A program made the position numbers and the translations under genes. Shown here one piece after another: positions 5,143 to 20,689 of a stretch of 32,000 nucleotides of DNA (positions are counted from its first letter, which is position 1; each line of letters begins with the position of its first letter). A model generated the notes under the pieces. It was not told the origin of the DNA and searched no databases. It saw only the letters and a program-made list of their open reading frames with translations. Source of the DNA: an archaeon (lineage in GTDB: Archaea > Asgardarchaeota > Thorarchaeia > Thorarchaeales > Thorarchaeaceae); NCBI GenBank assembly GCA_024275415.1, contig JAJRZD010000064.1, positions 1-32,000 of the forward strand, written 5' to 3'.

Positions 5143-5312
5143 ACTGAGTAGTCTCCTTAGTCGTCGTATATTAGTGCGTTGCCTTGACACATCACCTTCT
5201 TCAAAAAGGTTGTGTATTGAAAGAAGCAGGTTACACTTTTTTAACATAACCTTTATCAGTAGCGGAAATGGATGTTGTATTACAATAACTACATGTGATA
5301 CGAGGTATATGG

Positions 5313-6287
5313 ATGACAATCGCCATTCATGAGTCTGCATTGATACGGCATTTCAATACAAGAAAAGAAACATTGAGAGCTTGGGAAGAAAAGATAGGTG
5401 CACGATTCAGTCCGTTTAGGGGATTCAAAATGCCTGATAGTAGGCTTTATGTCGAACATCCTGATTTTCTAGATTCGATTGTGGATTTGATTATAACCAA
5501 CGAGCGTCATATCTTTTTGAGAGGGCCTGTAGGTAGTGGGAAAAGCACTTTGATGTTGTTGGCATTGCGAGATCTTCCTACACTTGCTGATAGGAGAGGA
5601 AACAAATTCATTACTGGGTATGTAGGAATGACTGGGCTTTATGAAAAGCAGATGAGTGCTGCTATTGCAGATTCGTTGCGCATCAAATATCGAAGATCTT
5701 GGGAGTCGAGCCAAATCATCGAAGCCGTAGCTCAGGAGAGTGTGCGTAGATACATTGAGGAGAAAAGCCGTACTGCTCTGTTCATTGAAGATGTGGCAGA
5801 CAACCAGGAAGCTGCATTTCATAAGCTACGTTATCTCGCAGACCTCCCTACTGAAGAGATGAAAGATGAATATGGGACAACACTTGATGAGCCTGTAGTG
5901 ACTCTAGTCATGTCGGGGACATCAATGTATTGGAATGCTATGTTGTCATTCCTTCCACAGATTGCCGATCGAACCGAACCTCTCGATGTTCCGCCGTTGA
6001 ATGACGATAAAGCAAAAGAATTCATCGGCAGGAGACTCGCTTATGCTAGGGGCGACATCGACAAGTTCGACCCAGATGACTTCAGTATTTATCCGTTTCA
6101 CGATGATGCCATCGTTGTTCTAAATCAAGCTTCAAAGGGAAATCCTCGCGACATTCGGATGTTAGCTCGCGGCTGCCAACAGGTAGCTGCTGAGAACTAT
6201 AAAAGAACTGGCAATCCTGATGTTGATGTAGAGATTGCCACATTGGTTGCAACTGCTTACGAGTATATCTTGAAGGAGGTCAGATGA
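5313..6287 (+). CDS. ExeA-like AAA+ ATPase
   Basis: Walker A GPVGSGKST, Walker B LFIEDV, sensor-like VMSGT, and GNPRDIRML helical bundle. ATG at 5313 follows GAGGT. Confidence 0.8.
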   Translation: MTIAIHESALIRHFNTRKETLRAWEEKIGARFSPFRGFKMPDSRLYVEHPDFLDSIVDLIITNERHIFLRGPVGSGKSTLMLLALRDLPTLADRRGNKFITGYVGMTGLYEKQMSAAIADSLRIKYRRSWESSQIIEAVAQESVRRYIEEKSRTALFIEDVADNQEAAFHKLRYLADLPTEEMKDEYGTTLDEPVVTLVMSGTSMYWNAMLSFLPQIADRTEPLDVPPLNDDKAKEFIGRRLAYARGDIDKFDPDDFSIYPFHDDAIVVLNQASKGNPRDIRMLARGCQQVAAENYKRTGNPDVDVEIATLVATAYEYILKEVR

Positions 6288-8057: not shown

Positions 8058-9320
8058 CTAATAGGTCTTATTCTTCCACATTTTCCGATAGAATCTATAA
8101 AGTTCATTGACATAGAAACAGTTACTGCTGAGCAATTCAGAAACAGCTCTTTGTGTTTCGGGGCAGCGAGGTATCAAACGACTGATGACATCAAGGATCA
8201 GACTTCGAATAGACCGATTATTAGTATGGCAGAAGATGTCAAGTAGTGTATGTGCTGATGCTTCATCATAGAAATTACCTATCGCACGGATAGCATCGGA
8301 TTTGATTCTCATATCTGGCAGCTGGACAAGTTGACTGATAGATGAAATAGAATCCACCCACCGAATGATAATATGATCTCGTAATAACGATAGGAAACTC
8401 CTGTAGTCATGGCTACTACTAGTCTGCCGGTAGTTATCAGTATGATTTCTCAAAAGATGATTAAACACAGGACAGGCATGTCTGCTGCCAAGATTCCTAA
8501 GATTCTCCACATCACATGTGATCAGAGCGTCTAAGAGAAGCCTGTATTGGGAGTTCAGAGGTTTCTGATCGTAAGAGTTGTTTGTCTTCGTAATACCTCC
8601 TTGCAGGAGTCTACTTCGCACCTCATTTGATACTTGTAATACAGATATTACAACCTGAAATACTTCGGGCGAAACGACGAGTCCTTTGATACATAGTTCA
8701 ACGAGTGCTCGTCGTCCGAATTCTGAATGCCAGAGAGGGGTGATGTTGATTGAGTTTCCAATGGTATGACATATAATACTTGAAACTGAATCCTGCTGCA
8801 ATTCTTCAACTCTAAGACGTTGTTCTCTTTGGAGTCCAATTTCATAGGGAAGCAGAGAGGGTTCGAAGAAAAGGGTGTCGTTCGATTCGATATGTTCTTC
8901 CACGGCTCGACTGATTTCTTTTATGAAACAGGTTTTTGCGCGAACGAACGAGTTTGCTTCAGAAAGGTATTGGAGAAGATTGACAATACTTCGATTGACT
9001 GGTTCAAAGCCAGCACAATCAAAGATGCTAAATATGACTTCTCTAAATTTCAAAGGTTCCAATCGTCGGGTAGGATTGTCGCCGTCCAATGGGACGGAAT
9101 ACTTCATACTAGACGCACGGATGAGAAATGTAACCGCACTCTCCCAATCAATTTGATTTTCGATTTTCCAGAGGATATCCTGGACATCCCGTATACGCCG
9201 CTCCCCAATTGCATTACAGATCCTTTGAGCTATCTCGTTGTCTTGACTCTCTTGGATCCTCTTTCTACTAGCAGCCAATAATCGATTGATTGTACTGTCG
9301 TCACCCAAGATGATCCCCAC
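8058..9320 (-). CDS. Hypothetical helical protein with C-terminal HEAT-like repeats
   Basis: 420-aa ORF. C-terminal DMRIKSDAIRAIGNF...SIRSLILDVISRL resembles HEAT repeats. Confidence 0.7.
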   Translation of the reverse strand: MGIILGDDSTINRLLAASRKRIQESQDNEIAQRICNAIGERRIRDVQDILWKIENQIDWESAVTFLIRASSMKYSVPLDGDNPTRRLEPLKFREVIFSIFDCAGFEPVNRSIVNLLQYLSEANSFVRAKTCFIKEISRAVEEHIESNDTLFFEPSLLPYEIGLQREQRLRVEELQQDSVSSIICHTIGNSINITPLWHSEFGRRALVELCIKGLVVSPEVFQVVISVLQVSNEVRSRLLQGGITKTNNSYDQKPLNSQYRLLLDALITCDVENLRNLGSRHACPVFNHLLRNHTDNYRQTSSSHDYRSFLSLLRDHIIIRWVDSISSISQLVQLPDMRIKSDAIRAIGNFYDEASAHTLLDIFCHTNNRSIRSLILDVISRLIPRCPETQRAVSELLSSNCFYVNELYRFYRKMWKNKTY

Positions 9321-14217: not shown

Positions 14218-16103
14218 TCCTCCTGTTTGATAGCACCTTGTGGACAAACTGCAACACAAGTTCCACAATAATTACACAGTGGCTCATCAATCACTGCTTT
14301 ATCTGTCACACTATCAAGATACATCGCTGGGCAGGACAACCGATTCAGGCATCGTTTGCAAGCTGTACACATATCAGAGTCGACATAGAACCTAGGGGGA
14401 TACTCTCCAGTCTTCCTCATCTCCGCAGCAGTAAGAAGTGCACATGGTGCTTTTGAAACTAATACAGCTGGTTCATGGTTTTCACGAACCCATTTGACCA
14501 TCTCCCGTACTTCACGTACTAATCCGGCAAGCGAGTCGAAAGGATTGATCGTTTTCACATACTTCACACCTAATCCCTTAGCTACATCCTCTACATCAAG
14601 GGGTTCCACCTGCTCTTGCATCCCCGTGATTCCTGTCCCGGGATGGGGCTGATGTCCAGTCATAGCGGTCGTACGGTTATCCAAAACTACAAGGCTGACG
14701 GGATGTTTGTTGTATACGGCGTTGACAAGCCCTGGAAGAACTGAGGCAAAAAAAGTGCTATCACCGACCGATGCCACAATATCCTGTCCCGTGACTTGAG
14801 CAATCCCACATGCAGTTGAGATCGAAGAGCCCATGTCAAAGAGAATATCTGCTGTTTCCAAAGGCGGTGCGATGCTAAGTGTGTAACATCCGATATCCGA
14901 GGGATAGATGGCTTTCCCGCGTGTAGCAGTTCTAATTGCAAAATAACTTGCCCTGTGGGGACAGCCCGCACAGAGTAATGGAGGTCGTGGCGGGAGGTCA
15001 GCCATATCCTTCATGCGCGAGTCGATTTCATCCCAATTGATACATGTATTACAGTCAGCAATCTTACACAGGGCCTCAATTACTATACGCGGACTGTATT
15101 CCATCGTCCTCGAGAAGTAACCCTGCTCTTTGCCGAGGATGTCGACCTCAACTCGGTGAAGTTGGGCGAGGCGGCGAGCGTGGGTTTCGAGATACGGTTC
15201 GAGCTCTTCCACAACAACCACTCGTTCATGCATCCTGAGAAAATCAGTTAGCTTCTGTTCAGGTAGCGGATGAGTGATACCAAGCTTGAGGATTTCAGCA
15301 TTCATCCCAAGATGGTCAAGAGCTTCGACGACATAAGTATAAGCGACACCACTCGTGATAATCCCTAAATCGCCTGTGCCCTCTATAAAGTTTAAGTGGC
15401 TAGTTTCAGAGATTTCTCGTGCTTTCGCTATTTGGCCGAGAAGCCAAGGATGTCGTAGTCGTGCTACTGAAGGTACTGGGACAAATCGATAGGGTTCTTT
15501 TTCAAATTCTACTTGTGCAGGGCGTTCACGGATCTCGTGGAACCGAACGGGTGCCCTAGTATGGTTCACCCGAGTCGTTGTGCGAAATAATACCGGAAGT
15601 TCTACTTTCTCTGAAAACTCATAAGCCTCTAACAACATTGATTTCGCCTCTGCTGGATCGGATGGTTCCATAAGTGGCATATTACCCATTAGAGCATAAT
15701 ATCGACTATCATTCTCGTTCTGGGAACTCCACATGCTTGGGTCGTCAGCCACCACAATCACCATCCCCCCACGCACACCCACATATGCTAGAGAGAAAAA
15801 AGGATCTGCTGCCACATTCAAACCAGGGCCCTTGCATACCATCATTGATCGGACTCCTGCAACCGCAGCCGCTCCAGCTACCTCTAATGCAACTTTCTCA
15901 TTTGTGCTGAACTCGAAATAGAAATTCGGAATGTGTGGAGCCATGAAAGTAAGATTATTCCCAATCTCACTGCTTGGAGTTCCTGGATAAAGTGCAACTA
16001 ATCGTACACCAGCCTCAAGAACACCTCTCGCTATCGCTTCGTTCGCTAACAGAAGTAAAGTCTTACCAGGTGCATCTTCAAGTAGTTCTTTTGGTTTTGT
16101 CAC
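14214..16103 (-). CDS. iorA: Indolepyruvate:ferredoxin oxidoreductase alpha subunit
   Basis: YPGTPSSEI, NEKVALE, PPLLCAGCPHR, TPP motif GDSTFF...LDNRTTAMTGHQ, and a C-terminal two-cluster ferredoxin domain (CTACKRC, CNYCGTCVAVCP). GTG start after AGGAGG. Confidence 0.96.
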   Translation of the reverse strand: MTKPKELLEDAPGKTLLLLANEAIARGVLEAGVRLVALYPGTPSSEIGNNLTFMAPHIPNFYFEFSTNEKVALEVAGAAAVAGVRSMMVCKGPGLNVAADPFFSLAYVGVRGGMVIVVADDPSMWSSQNENDSRYYALMGNMPLMEPSDPAEAKSMLLEAYEFSEKVELPVLFRTTTRVNHTRAPVRFHEIRERPAQVEFEKEPYRFVPVPSVARLRHPWLLGQIAKAREISETSHLNFIEGTGDLGIITSGVAYTYVVEALDHLGMNAEILKLGITHPLPEQKLTDFLRMHERVVVVEELEPYLETHARRLAQLHRVEVDILGKEQGYFSRTMEYSPRIVIEALCKIADCNTCINWDEIDSRMKDMADLPPRPPLLCAGCPHRASYFAIRTATRGKAIYPSDIGCYTLSIAPPLETADILFDMGSSISTACGIAQVTGQDIVASVGDSTFFASVLPGLVNAVYNKHPVSLVVLDNRTTAMTGHQPHPGTGITGMQEQVEPLDVEDVAKGLGVKYVKTINPFDSLAGLVREVREMVKWVRENHEPAVLVSKAPCALLTAAEMRKTGEYPPRFYVDSDMCTACKRCLNRLSCPAMYLDSVTDKAVIDEPLCNYCGTCVAVCPQGAIKQEE

Positions 16104-16207
16104 AGAAGATCCTCCTTAACACCATAGAATTGGCTGTGCAGTCGAACCAAGTTTCGTCTATCAGTCTTATGGTAGTACAGAGCCTGTATTACATGTATCA
16201 CGCACTA

Positions 16208-16225
16208 TTAGAACACATGTTCCAA
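16208..16225. promoter_or_regulatory. 18-bp palindrome WTAGAACACRTGTTCYAA, copy 1
   Basis: TTAGAACACATGTTCCAA. Confidence 0.7.
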
Positions 16226-16300
16226 CAAACAATCATACAAAACAAGACGTAGCGTTAAACAAGATCAACACAACAAAAACAGAAAATGTGGAAAGACAAG

Positions 16301-16322
16301 ACCCCTCTATTTCCTATGGAAC
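16301..16322 (-). promoter_or_regulatory. Origin recognition box (ORB)-like element
   Basis: The minus strand reads GTTCCATAGGAAATAGAGGGGT, a TTCC-N3-GGAA dyad plus G-string as in archaeal ORBs. Confidence 0.75.
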
Positions 16323-16433
16323 TGTATGAATATTGCTTGTAGCAATGACAACTGTATGTATGTATGAAAAATGGAGATAAATGCAATTTGTCAATCTTAT
16401 ATATATAATTTTCTTTTTCTGTTTTTTTTTGAT
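16323..16433. other. AT-rich core (candidate duplex-unwinding element)
   Basis: 16397..16430 is 31/34 A+T. It lies between ORB-like boxes and includes a (TGTA)3 run. Confidence 0.6.
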
Positions 16434-16463
16434 ACCCCATTATTTCCATTGGAAGCAAGGGGG
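16434..16463. promoter_or_regulatory. ORB-like element readable in both orientations
   Basis: Plus strand TTTCCATTGGAAGCAAGGGGG (16443..16463). Minus strand CTTCCAATGGAAATAATGGGGT (16455..16434). Confidence 0.75.
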
Positions 16464-16506
16464 ATTAGTGGTTTCTTCTAGTAACCATCCGAATCCATTA
16501 GCGTTG

Positions 16507-16524
16507 TTAGAACACGTGTTCTAA
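16507..16524. promoter_or_regulatory. 18-bp palindrome, copy 2 (perfect)
   Basis: TTAGAACACGTGTTCTAA. It overlaps the stop codon of the small ORF. Confidence 0.75.
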
Positions 16525-16814
16525 TAGGTGATTTCATCTACAATTTCAAAAACCCGAAGATGCATGATATCGGAATATTCGCTGAATAAAGTGTCAAAGA
16601 CCGATTTGTATTCACTCGGGACAATAATAGCCGAATCAACCACGATCTCAGAGCCTAGACACTCCTCGATCAAACCTGGCTTTCGTTTCTGCCTAATCCC
16701 TGATTTGGTCTTCCACGTATATGTAAATCCATATAGCTCCTTAGTGAACGAAACACGTCTTGCATTAGTCCTGCGAGCTTGTCGAAAATCGTATAGGAAT
16801 AGAAATTTGGCCAA
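16521..16814 (-). CDS. Small hypothetical protein, possibly Cas2/VapD-like ferredoxin fold
   Basis: TTG start at 16814 with GGTGA 5 nt upstream gives MAKFLFLYDFRQ...FTKELYGF...DSAIIVP...LRVFEIV. The start and fold are inferred. Confidence 0.6.
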   Translation of the reverse strand: MAKFLFLYDFRQARRTNARRVSFTKELYGFTYTWKTKSGIRQKRKPGLIEECLGSEIVVDSAIIVPSEYKSVFDTLFSEYSDIMHLRVFEIVDEITY

Positions 16815-16828
16815 GCATATCACCAGCA

Positions 16829-16846
16829 ATAGAACACATGTTCCAA
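16829..16846. promoter_or_regulatory. 18-bp palindrome, copy 3
   Basis: ATAGAACACATGTTCCAA, identical to copy 1 over 17 bp. Confidence 0.7.
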
Positions 16847-16870
16847 ATTTCATTATATGTAATACACCAT

Positions 16871-16884
16871 GTTCCAATGGAAAG
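16871..16884. promoter_or_regulatory. ORB core dyad without G-string (mini-ORB-like)
   Basis: GTTCCAATGGAAAG in the divergent region upstream of the LKR gene. Confidence 0.4.
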
Positions 16885-16942
16885 CTTAAAGCGTGGATAC
16901 AAATGCCCTGACCTACCCCTTCGAGTTTCAGGAGGCACTCCT

Positions 16943-18244
16943 ATGAACAAGATAGGTCTGCGGAAGGAAGAAAAAGACTTCGAGTCGCGTGTTCCGATAG
17001 TTCCTGATCATATACGCCTTTTGCACGAGAAATATGGGATTGATTTCGTCATCGAGCCGAGTGAGCAACGAGCTTTCAGTCATAAGGACTATCAGATTGC
17101 AGGTGCCACTATTTCTCTCCTAACAGGTAGTGATGTGAATGTCATTCTGGGAATCAAAGAGATGCCTATGGATTTCTTTGAGCCCTCTAAGGTCTATGTG
17201 TTCTTCAGTCATACCGTGAAAGGTCAAAAGCACAACATGCCCATGTTACAGCGGATCTTAAATATTGGAGCAACGCTCATCGACTATGAGCGGATTGTCG
17301 ATGAACGAGGGCGAAGACTTGTCTATTTCGGGAATTGGGCCGGCATAGCCGGCCTAGCAGACACACTACACTCATTTGGGCTGCTGCTTGAGCTGGATGC
17401 TATTAAGCCGAACCCTTTCTACGGGCTCAAGCCTACAATTGAGGTAAATAATCTCCACGAGCTCCAAGCGGAGTTCAAATCACTTGGAAAACGTATAGAG
17501 TCTGATGGCATCCCTGAAACGCTCGCACCTCTTGTAGTCGGATTTGCCGGATATGGGAATGTGTCTCGGGGAGCACAGGAGCTCCTTGATTTCCTTCCCC
17601 TTGAAACAGTATCCCCTGATGATTTGTTCAATCTCCCAGCTCGTTCTGATGTGCTCTACAAATGTGTCTTTAAGGAAGAGCATATGGTAGAACCCGTTGA
17701 CCCTGCGAGTAGTTTCGACTTGCAGGAATACTATAATCACGGCTCCGAAAAATATCAAGGCATTTTCGAGAAGTACATCCCGTACCTCACTATACTGATG
17801 AACTGCATCTATTGGACTGAGAAGTATCCACGTCTGATAACAAAGGAGTTTATGCGGAAACACTGGCACAGTACTGCCCGACGACTCCGTGTCATTGGAG
17901 ATATCTCATGCGACATAGAAGGTGCGATTGAACTCACCATCACAACCACCAAACCCAATGATCCCTCGTTCACATATATCATTGATGAAGACAGGGCCGA
18001 ACAGGGTGTCAGCACAAAAGGTCCCGTCATCATGGCCGTTGATAATCTCCCTTGCGAACTACCACGAGAATCATCTACTTCGTTTAGTACAACCCTTTTG
18101 GAATTTGTGCCCTCTTTGGCAATGGCAAACTTCGATTTGTCTTTCGAATCTTTGGATTTGCCTCGTGAACTACACGATGCGGTTATTGTTCATCGAGGAA
18201 AACTAACCCCGAATTACGAGTATCTGGAAAAATTCCTATCTTAG
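16943..18244 (+). CDS. Lysine-ketoglutarate reductase / saccharopine dehydrogenase (lysine-forming), AlaDH/PNT fold
   Basis: IGLRKEEK..ESRVPIVP, ILGIKE, FFSHTVKGQ, TLIDYERI, GYGNVSRGA, NCIYW..KYPRL, DISCDIEG, AVDNLPCELPRESS. ATG after AGGAGG. Confidence 0.9.
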   Translation: MNKIGLRKEEKDFESRVPIVPDHIRLLHEKYGIDFVIEPSEQRAFSHKDYQIAGATISLLTGSDVNVILGIKEMPMDFFEPSKVYVFFSHTVKGQKHNMPMLQRILNIGATLIDYERIVDERGRRLVYFGNWAGIAGLADTLHSFGLLLELDAIKPNPFYGLKPTIEVNNLHELQAEFKSLGKRIESDGIPETLAPLVVGFAGYGNVSRGAQELLDFLPLETVSPDDLFNLPARSDVLYKCVFKEEHMVEPVDPASSFDLQEYYNHGSEKYQGIFEKYIPYLTILMNCIYWTEKYPRLITKEFMRKHWHSTARRLRVIGDISCDIEGAIELTITTTKPNDPSFTYIIDEDRAEQGVSTKGPVIMAVDNLPCELPRESSTSFSTTLLEFVPSLAMANFDLSFESLDLPRELHDAVIVHRGKLTPNYEYLEKFLS

Positions 18245-19598: not shown

Positions 19599-20228
19599 TC
19601 ATTTGCCAACTCTCACTTGGAGTATTGATAGGATTTTCTCAGCGCGCCCAATTTCTTTCTTGACATCCTCAATTTCAGTCTTCAAACGGTACATGTAGCC
19701 AGACCTATTTCCTATTCGTTCTAGATGTCCTTTTCCATTGTTCCACATTCTGGCAAGATATGTTGATGCAGTACTCTTTGGGAGGTTTTCCTCAAACGTG
19801 TTCTGATATATCTCAGTGACATCAAGTGATGAGAATTTGCCATGTTTGAATGACGCGTAGATAACCATCTGGAGCTTTTCAAAGTTACTCATTGACTCGT
19901 AATCTGACTCTTCAATCTCCACATCGCTGGGCTTTTCAGTTGATCTGACGATAGAGCATCCCGTACTAGCTTCCAGAAAAACCTTGAATTTCTCAAGCAT
20001 TTCCTCTATGCTACTACCCTTGACCTGAAAACTTGATTCCTCCCCTGTGACCTCATCTGAAACCACTATTTTGAAATCAAATGGCGCTTCTGCTAACGAA
20101 AGCATTCGTTCGAATCGTTTCAGTGCTTCACCTGGAAGGACGTATCTGCACTGAAATATCTCTCTGGTTTTTGGAGATGAATTGTACGTGAAGGCGTACA
20201 GATAATTAGTTCGTCCTGTATCAGGCAT
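19599..20228 (-). CDS. Hypothetical protein with C-terminal winged helix-turn-helix
   Basis: FSSLDVTEIYQNTFEENLPKSTASTYLARMW..GHLERIGNRSGYMYRL fits a wHTH recognition helix plus wing. Confidence 0.75.
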   Translation of the reverse strand: MPDTGRTNYLYAFTYNSSPKTREIFQCRYVLPGEALKRFERMLSLAEAPFDFKIVVSDEVTGEESSFQVKGSSIEEMLEKFKVFLEASTGCSIVRSTEKPSDVEIEESDYESMSNFEKLQMVIYASFKHGKFSSLDVTEIYQNTFEENLPKSTASTYLARMWNNGKGHLERIGNRSGYMYRLKTEIEDVKKEIGRAEKILSILQVRVGK

Positions 20229-20260: not shown

Positions 20261-20689
20261 ATTCACAAAATTAATGCGTTTATATCCAAATAAGTGTGAG
20301 TATGTGAATCGTGTATATCCCAATAAGTACAAGGTATTGCGTACATAGCTATTTTGAGCGTGATAATCACAGATTTCCTTTGTTATGACAACGAAAACGT
20401 TAGAAATCTGCTTAAAGATGTTATTAACGCTTATTTTCGTGGTTTAAGATGATTATCCAATTCCATTAACATTCACACAAATATGGGTGCTGTGAACAAC
20501 GATACCGACCTATCTAAACGCTCCTCTCCGATTTCCAGTGGAAACGAAGGGGTATGATAAATCACAATCAACTGCTTCTTTATACGCTCCCTCTATTCAA
20601 ACTAAGCCATATGACTCCTCTTTTTCTGTCCACCGTTCACAAAAAAGGCGCCATTCACAGATATATACTGTGAACGCGTGATTGTGAAT
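20261..20689. repeat. Array of ten R(T/A)TCACA heptamers in both orientations
   Basis: ATTCACA at 20261+, 20303-, 20471+, 20653+, 20683-; GTTCACA at 20491-, 20635+, 20669-; AATCACA at 20365+, 20560+. Confidence 0.75.
20532..20553 (+). promoter_or_regulatory. ORB-like element
   Basis: TTTCCAGTGGAAACGAAGGGGT closely matches the canonical archaeal ORB (TTCCAGTGGAAAC + G-string). Confidence 0.8.

Follow-up and report, generated by a model that had tools for sequence, protein, structure and literature searches.

Can an intergenic spacer with the layout of an archaeal origin of replication be the oriC of its chromosome if no initiator gene lies beside it? This question is raised by a spacer of a Thorarchaeaceae genome (assembly GCA_024275415.1), which we analyzed within a window of 32,000 nucleotides located at the start of contig C43 (JAJRZD010000064.1). 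The first-pass annotation had proposed that two ORB-like boxes inverted around an AT tract form an origin, flanked by iorA, a tiny open reading frame (ORF), and LKR/SDH, in a stretch devoid of orc1/cdc6. The boxes were located where this annotation had placed them, on the minus strand at positions 16301 to 16323 and on the plus strand at positions 16443 to 16463, with the AT tract (31 of 34 nucleotides) between them at positions 16397 to 16430. The flanking genes were also those named, iorB and iorA being carried by the minus strand, and it is true that the 32 kb contain no orc1/cdc6 gene, the nearest one being found ~25 kb away (C43:41277-42374).

Both ORBs consist of a TTCCA-NN-GGAA dyad followed, after 4 to 5 nucleotides, by a G-string. 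The left ORB has its dyad at positions 16311 to 16321 and the right ORB has its dyad at positions 16444 to 16454 and its outer G-string at positions 16459 to 16463; since the former is on the minus strand and the latter on the plus strand, the two G-strings face outward, away from the AT core. The dyad core TTCCANWGGAA was found nine times in the window versus 0.26 expected, a number that none of 100 shuffled sequences reached. In the 3.53-Mb, 127-contig assembly, perfect boxes combining the dyad and the G-string were detected only at C43:16311, C43:16444, C43:20533, and C123:8403. The first two form the sole complete ORB-DUE-ORB unit of the assembly, and an nhmmer search with a profile of the unit retrieved one full-length copy in this genome. 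The spacer between the two ORBs (positions 16324 to 16442; ~120 bp, strandless), presumed to be the duplex-unwinding element (DUE), has an AT content of 75% versus 56.6% for the window, and no 40-mer of the 95,895-bp contig C43 is richer in AT than the one starting at position 16395, between both boxes. The features by which an archaeal ORB-type oriC is recognized, i.e., at least two ORBs matching the dyad and G-string consensus and the arrangement ORB(-)/AT-rich DUE/ORB(+), are both present. The inverted layout that had been proposed thus stands, but the right ORB also carries an inner C-string (positions 16434 to 16438) that makes it readable on both strands and that is specific to the Thorarchaeaceae genome studied. 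This C-string was found in none of 11 aligned relatives, in which the outer G-string is invariant, indicating that the inverted reading is the conserved one. A functional double-headed right ORB was rejected on these grounds.

Additional motifs surround the midpoint and the ends of the unit. The central block AAAATGGAGATAAAT (positions 16368 to 16382, plus strand) is invariant and ends at the midpoint between the ORBs (position 16382.5); the full 15-mer is unique to the unit in the assembly, whereas its 10-nucleotide core has 15 scattered matches. About 15 nucleotides beyond the central block lies an AT box (positions 16398 to 16412, strandless; family consensus TATWWATACTTTT), which is both TATA-like and ucm-like. 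Three strandless 18-bp palindromes (PALs) were identified: PAL-L (positions 16208 to 16225; half-sites GAACA/TGTTC), PAL-R (positions 16507 to 16524), which overlaps the stop codon of the small gene, and PAL-3 (positions 16829 to 16846), ~20 to 35 bp upstream of the start of that gene. The extended form of the palindrome is present at six sites genome-wide, three of which are at the origin locus. The half-sites of the PALs (TGGAAC and GTTCCA in relatives) correspond to the hexamers of the ORB dyad halves in everted order, and an Orc1 paralogue, instead of an unrelated protein, might bind the PALs. A motif of the GTATTACA/TGTAATAC type lies 10 to 20 bp from PALs at positions 16185 to 16197 and 16854 to 16866 and recurs in relatives within the promoter of orc1-1; it may be a promoter element specific to the lineage. 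The locus further contains a mini-ORB, reduced to a dyad without G-string (positions 16870 to 16884, strandless), and, 4.2 kb from the two-ORB unit, a satellite full ORB (positions 20531 to 20553, plus strand), which is the single ORB of that region. An Rfam scan of positions 15900 to 17100 gave no match at E values of up to 1, so the conserved core is not explained by a known RNA gene.

Conservation of the intergenic region in relatives was among the checks that the first-pass annotation had called for, and it revealed that the boxes and their layout are kept across the family and beyond. The order iorA-spacer-small ORF-LKR was found in 16 of 18 sampled Thorarchaeaceae genomes. All 11 syntenic relatives, belonging to at least 10 genera, have two ORBs 130 to 136 bp apart with outward G-strings. 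The profile of the unit detected one copy per genome in 24 of 26 genomes of the family (E values of 1e-11 to 1e-29), related genomes not being statistically independent. In an alignment of 12 genomes, the invariant columns comprised C4, T13 to C15, and G21 to A22 of the left ORB, GGAA and GGGG of the right ORB, and TAT..ATA.TTT of the AT box. The 18-bp PALs flank each ORB at ~35 to 90 bp in the family alignment, and a PAL is found at both ends of the small gene in relatives. The satellite ORB occurs at the same offset of ~4.2 kb in genomes G014 and G005. The mini-ORB at positions 16870 to 16884 is not consistently conserved.

The location of the unit in a divergent intergenic spacer raises the possibility that it controls transcription on both sides, of iorAB and of the small gene and LKR, the boxes and PALs acting as operators and the TATA-like box as a promoter. 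Several features fit such a role: read on the minus strand, the AT box and the adjacent A run resemble a BRE/TATA element, PAL-3 sits in the promoter of the small gene, and Orc1-2 is described as a transcription regulator in Sulfolobales (PMC12490963). However, in G014 the whole core (central block and AT box) is reverse-complemented relative to the flanking genes, and the core is inverted with respect to the small gene, as judged from the strand of the best match to the model, in 8 of 25 genomes of the family (G014, G012, G116, G135, G034, G121, G131, and G089). Such inversions are in keeping with an autonomous, quasi-symmetric module and speak against a promoter dedicated to one of the neighbouring genes. 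The sequences suggest recurrent inversion between the inverted ORB and PAL repeats. The structure of the unit is moreover maintained between families in spite of different flanking genes (see below), and we regard a control region as very unlikely.

If the unit is an origin, where is its initiator encoded? The assembly contains three genes of the Orc1/Cdc6 type: orc1-1, carried by the 2-kb contig C52 (418 bits); the orc1-2 paralogue located ~25 kb from the boxes on C43 (291 bits); and a divergent paralogue on contig C1. The reading frame of orc1-2 is interrupted by one in-frame TAG in the region encoding the C-terminal winged helix; the orthologues of five relatives have no such stop, which could reflect a pseudogene, a sequencing error, or recoding. 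In Thorarchaeaceae, no initiator gene was found directly adjacent to the unit. In three better-assembled genomes of the family, orc1-2 is located ~24 kb and orc1-1 ~63 to 78 kb from the unit: in G014 and G007 the unit is followed by orc1-2 ~24 kb away and then by orc1-1 ~40 kb further, and in G005 the distances are ~24 kb and ~78 kb, respectively.

Profile searches in other Asgard lineages retrieved full-length matches to the unit model at 1.2 to 1.5 kb from orc1-1 in five genomes belonging to four families (G019, G020, G024, G030, and G041), G019 representing a sister family of the same order. These orc1-adjacent Asgard units served to establish the orientation of the ORBs empirically, and the orientation was the same in the four that were inspected (G019, G020, G024, and G041). 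The orc1-adjacent units of G019 and G024 also have PALs on their sides. In G019, G020, and G024, the unit and the small gene lie next to each other; the small gene was not detected in G041. By tblastn, the gene encoding a 209-amino-acid protein that is located in the window at positions 19599 to 20228 (minus strand) was found, in each of the four genomes inspected (G019, G041, G020, and G024), in the interval separating the unit from orc1-1. The unit is flanked by iorAB in G019 and has hypF and the counterpart of the AAA+ gene of the window (positions 5295 to 6287) in its vicinity in G024. The satellite ORB, whose dyad starts at position 20533, matches by its position an ORB located between orc1-1 and the 209-residue protein gene in G019. 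The orc1-1-adjacent units differ from those of Thorarchaeaceae by the distance between the ORBs (145 to 202 bp versus 130 to 136 bp), and the central block is not conserved in them outside Thorarchaeaceae. The common neighbours and the ORB layout indicate that the locus of the window is the orthologue of the orc1-1-linked oriC. As judged from gene order, LKR/SDH was inserted and orc1-1 displaced in Thorarchaeaceae, and the missing adjacency is a derived state conserved in the family.

The region upstream of the displaced orc1-1 was considered as a rival origin and rejected. In the family genomes checked, it is a short divergent promoter of 150 to 200 bp containing two to four mini-ORBs (C52:1850-1892 in this assembly), which lack G-strings, and it contains no long AT tract. 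The mini-ORBs look like an autoregulatory device kept by the gene after its separation from the origin. Such autoregulation is a further point in favour of a transcriptional role for the unit itself, as considered above.

The first-pass annotation had also called for a skew analysis, which revealed a replication-type switch of strand asymmetry at the unit in relatives with long contigs. In the 592-kb contig C2 of G014, maxima of the cumulative disparities were found at 376.7 kb (A-T and purine) and at 378.3 kb (amino/keto), the ORB pair being located at 378.0 to 378.15 kb. To exclude artefacts due to gene orientation, third-codon-position skews were computed separately for plus-strand and minus-strand ORFs on each side of the locus. 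The skew flipped with the side of the locus and not with the strand of the genes in the four genomes tested (G000, the genome studied here, G005, G007, and G014). In G014, AT3 was +0.10 for plus-strand ORFs on the left versus -0.17 on the right, and -0.15 for minus-strand ORFs on the left versus +0.12 on the right; GC3 flipped across the locus in G000, G005, and G007. In G014, most of the asymmetry comes from A/T at third codon positions, but in G000 (C43), G005 (C7), and G007 (C4) it comes from G/C. A raw cumulative GC or RY maximum at 13.6 kb, observed both in the window and in its own contig, tracks gene orientation and was set aside as not decisive.

Scans with one breakpoint positioned the switch with respect to the unit. 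In G014, the best AT3 breakpoint was at 377.0 kb (bootstrap interval, 372 to 377 kb) for a unit at 378.0 kb, and R2 was 0.70 with the switch at the unit, equal to the best value, versus 0.03 without switch, 0.56 at orc1-2, and 0.41 at orc1-1. In G007, the best GC3 breakpoint was at 48.5 kb (bootstrap interval, 43 to 49 kb) for a unit at 49.7 kb, with R2 values of 0.33 at the unit, again equal to the best value, 0.06 without switch, 0.10 at orc1-2, and 0.02 at orc1-1. The switch is thus sharp in these two genomes. It is compatible with the unit in G005 and in the genome studied here, which gave a good fit at the unit with a broader optimum: the best fits were located 24 kb and 7 kb away, respectively, with similar R2 values. 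A promoter shared by iorAB and the small gene does not explain a switch that extends over entire contigs.

The resolution of the skew analysis is ~5 kb, and in G014 the R2 of 0.70 at the unit compares with 0.68 at the satellite ORB. On this scale, the unit might be a conserved Orc1-binding platform that fires rarely or has ceased to fire (a dormant or relic origin, or a site of licensing or regulation), initiation taking place a few kilobases away, for example at the satellite ORB at ~20.5 kb, or at other, undetected origins. Dormant origins bearing ORBs do exist in haloarchaea (PMC4595724). Contig C123 moreover shows that ORBs alone do not make an origin. Positions 8340 to 8560 of this contig contain one full ORB with strings on both sides, located 133 to 137 bp from an 18-bp palindrome, i.e., at the ORB-ORB distance of the origin unit, with an AT-rich stretch containing a TATA-like box in between. 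This association of an ORB and a PAL at 133 to 137 bp is also found in five relatives. The C123 module and its orthologue in G009, used as negative controls, displayed no strand switch, and the module was rejected as a detectable second origin; contig C123 shows a strong and uniform AT3 effect. Against a dormant platform, the unit under study is the only site where an inverted ORB pair encloses a long AT tract and invariant motifs at the midpoint, the satellite region has a single ORB, and the bootstrap intervals of G014 and G007 end at the unit. We therefore consider dormancy of the unit to be unlikely, if somewhat less so than a control region.

The polarity of the switch calls for a separate comment. 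The leading strand leaving the unit is C-rich (and T-rich in G014), and the unit lies at a cumulative GC-skew maximum, which is opposite to the bacterial rule. As such a maximum marks the terminus in bacteria, the locus could be a replication terminus or another strand-switch boundary, such as an assembly join, with ORB-like boxes present by chance. However, the orc1-1-adjacent unit of the closed genome G020 (1,418,269 bp; 400 kb examined, C1:420001-820000), the only one with which polarity was compared, also lies at a cumulative GC-skew maximum, and its breakpoint has the same sign as in Thorarchaeaceae (delta, -0.06), with 215 ORFs co-directional with the forks versus 166 in the opposite direction. 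In Thorarchaeaceae, ORFs tend to be oriented like the forks that leave the locus (50 to 59% of the ORFs and 53 to 60% of coding base pairs; 499 versus 419 ORFs in the pooled data), and the AT3 component of G014, with its T-rich leading strand, has the polarity usual for an origin. The switch also recurs at the orthologous locus in independent assemblies. The ORB content, the co-orientation of genes, and the match to orc1-adjacent units lead us to read the locus as an origin, and a terminus or an assembly boundary is most improbable. Together, a dormant platform, a control region, and a terminus retain a small share of the probability.

The conservation of the unit, the switch of strand asymmetry, and the orthology to orc1-1-adjacent units support the earlier proposal of an archaeal oriC layout without a neighbouring initiator. 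We consider it highly probable, from these comparisons, that the ~170-base unit is the chromosomal oriC in this Thorarchaeota genome and belongs to the classical archaeal ORB(-)/DUE/ORB(+) type. Such an origin, which lies at a distance from its initiator gene, would be new for Asgard archaea. Additional origins may exist elsewhere in the fragmented assembly. By this account, Orc1-1, although encoded elsewhere, would bind the two ORBs in opposite orientations, with one monomer per ORB, the winged helix contacting the TTCCA..GGAA dyad and the AAA+ domain contacting the outward G-string. Once bound, the two monomers would load MCM at the AT-rich spacer (~120 bp) for replication in both directions from the unit. 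The central block, the ucm-like AT box, and the flanking PALs are probably docking sites for accessory factors.

Which accessory factors might be involved? The gene closest to the unit (positions 16521 to 16811, minus strand) is a single-copy gene with a TTG start, which abuts the origin unit and encodes a protein of ~95 residues. It was located 17 to 233 bp from the unit in all 36 genomes in which both could be placed on one contig (25 Thorarchaeaceae and 11 members of four other Asgard families). Twelve orthologues are 55 to 71% identical within the family, the Asp8 residue being invariant among orthologues, and the close homologues are all annotated as Candidatus Thorarchaeota. The protein matched no Pfam family at E values of up to 0.1 and had no match in a sequence-profile search of the PDB. 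Its AlphaFold (AF2) model has a pLDDT of 92.6 and a ferredoxin-like beta-alpha-beta-beta-alpha-beta fold. Comparison of the model with the PDB by Foldseek gave no match at E ≤ 0.001; the top rows were Cas2 proteins, with weak E values of 0.03 to 0.1. In VIA-align, Cas2 proteins had Z scores of 6.6 to 7.7, tied with unrelated ferredoxin-like proteins, so that these matches are generic. Assignment to the Cas2 or VapD families is not backed by family profiles, in the form of either a Pfam family or a PDB sequence match. Prediction of a homodimer gave a score of 0.46 versus 0.00 for the best control, with at least 94% of the contacts shared between runs and a partner pLDDT of at least 81; of the proteins solved as one-chain pairs, 20 of 30 reached the mark applied to this score, versus 1 of 23 among those solved as single chains, and passing it may partly reflect the likeness to solved Cas2 dimers. 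The model supports pairing of the protein, and a dimer would suit a palindromic site, DNA binding being putative. The second linked gene is the 209-codon gene that, in other Asgard families, separates the unit from orc1-1; its product had no Pfam match and no PDB sequence match.

These linkages raise the possibility of an Asgard origin module larger than ORB-DUE-ORB, which would include the PALs, lineage-specific midpoint motifs, and the two linked genes as origin-binding or licensing cofactors, the ~95-residue protein binding the PALs. We put this forward tentatively, as a possibility with less than even chances. It is likewise rather doubtful, within such a larger module, that the ~95-residue and 209-residue proteins are functional analogues of UBP and of WhiP/Cdt1-type factors. 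If the larger module exists, the initiator gene can leave, as in Thorarchaeaceae, and the linked cofactor genes cannot.

How does the unit compare with origins already described? The canonical archaeal pattern is ORB(-)/DUE/ORB(+) (preprint 10.64898/2026.08.15.744077). The oriC1 of Sulfolobus has a 130-bp ORB3-DUE-ORB2 core with one initiator of defined polarity per ORB; neither the two ORBs nor an 11-bp ucm located midway can be dispensed with, and UBP, a protein reported as restricted to Sulfolobales and Desulfurococcales, binds the ucm (PMC12141716). The authors of that study ask whether other lineages have analogous factors. The Thorarchaeaceae unit resembles the oriC1 of Sulfolobus and Saccharolobus by its inverted Orc1-1 boxes ~130 bp apart, its AT-rich DUE, and its conserved midway motif. 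The central block is a positional analogue of the ucm with a different sequence, and the AT box of relatives has only TTATAC in common with the verified ucm TTATACAAAC (preprint 10.64898/2026.08.15.744077), a likeness that we treat as a lead only. The two origins differ in that orc1-1 is immediately adjacent in Sulfolobus and tens of kilobases away in Thorarchaeaceae, and nothing described in Sulfolobus oriC1 corresponds to the PALs or to the linked small gene.

Similarities to Pyrococcus extend to the sequence of the boxes, since the ORBs bound by Cdc6 in that genus have a dyad core, TTTCCACTGGAA, identical to that of the Thorarchaeaceae unit, together with a C/G-string (PMC1904270). The spacing between the dyad and the G-string in Thorarchaeaceae also matches that of a haloarchaeal ORB. 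As in the Thermococcales, an inverted ORB pair is accompanied by a second ORB cluster a few kilobases away, within the Cdc6-bound zone in Pyrococcus (PMC1904270), and orc1-1 adjoins an ORF resembling the PolD small subunit (contig C52, identified by eye). The genes located between the ORB clusters differ, being cdc6 in Thermococcales and LKR/SDH and the 209-codon gene in Thorarchaeaceae. The oriC of Thermococcales also contains many mini-ORBs, whereas in Thorarchaeaceae the mini-ORBs stayed with orc1-1.

An ORB(-)/DUE/ORB(+) origin without adjacent initiator has a precedent in the main oriC of Hyperthermus butylicus (Ori-Finder-Arch preprint, 10.64898/2026.08.15.744077), and an adjacent initiator is therefore the usual but not the invariable arrangement. 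H. butylicus is a member of another phylum, and the displacement in Thorarchaeaceae differs in being traceable by synteny to an orc1-adjacent ancestral state. Our searches of the literature returned no description of an Asgard replication origin, and reviews on Asgard archaea state only that Orc1/Cdc6 and MCM are carried. In Candidatus Odinarchaeum yellowstonii LCB_4, a putative origin was placed at a GC-skew minimum (PMC9246712). The polarity observed here suggests that the leading strand of Asgard archaea may be C-rich and that their skew polarity may be inverted with respect to the bacterial rule. If so, Asgard origin calls at cumulative GC-skew minima may mark the terminus.

The locus provides Thorarchaeota with a precisely placed and conserved candidate oriC, which orthology extends to several other Asgard families; its ORBs and DUE are defined, and some of its motifs and two linked genes are candidates for accessory roles. 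An origin and its initiator gene can part by tens of kilobases, the origin staying in place, and such origins could escape annotation pipelines in which intergenic regions beside an initiator gene receive the top rank. The unit thus offers a candidate map of the start of replication in close relatives of eukaryotes.
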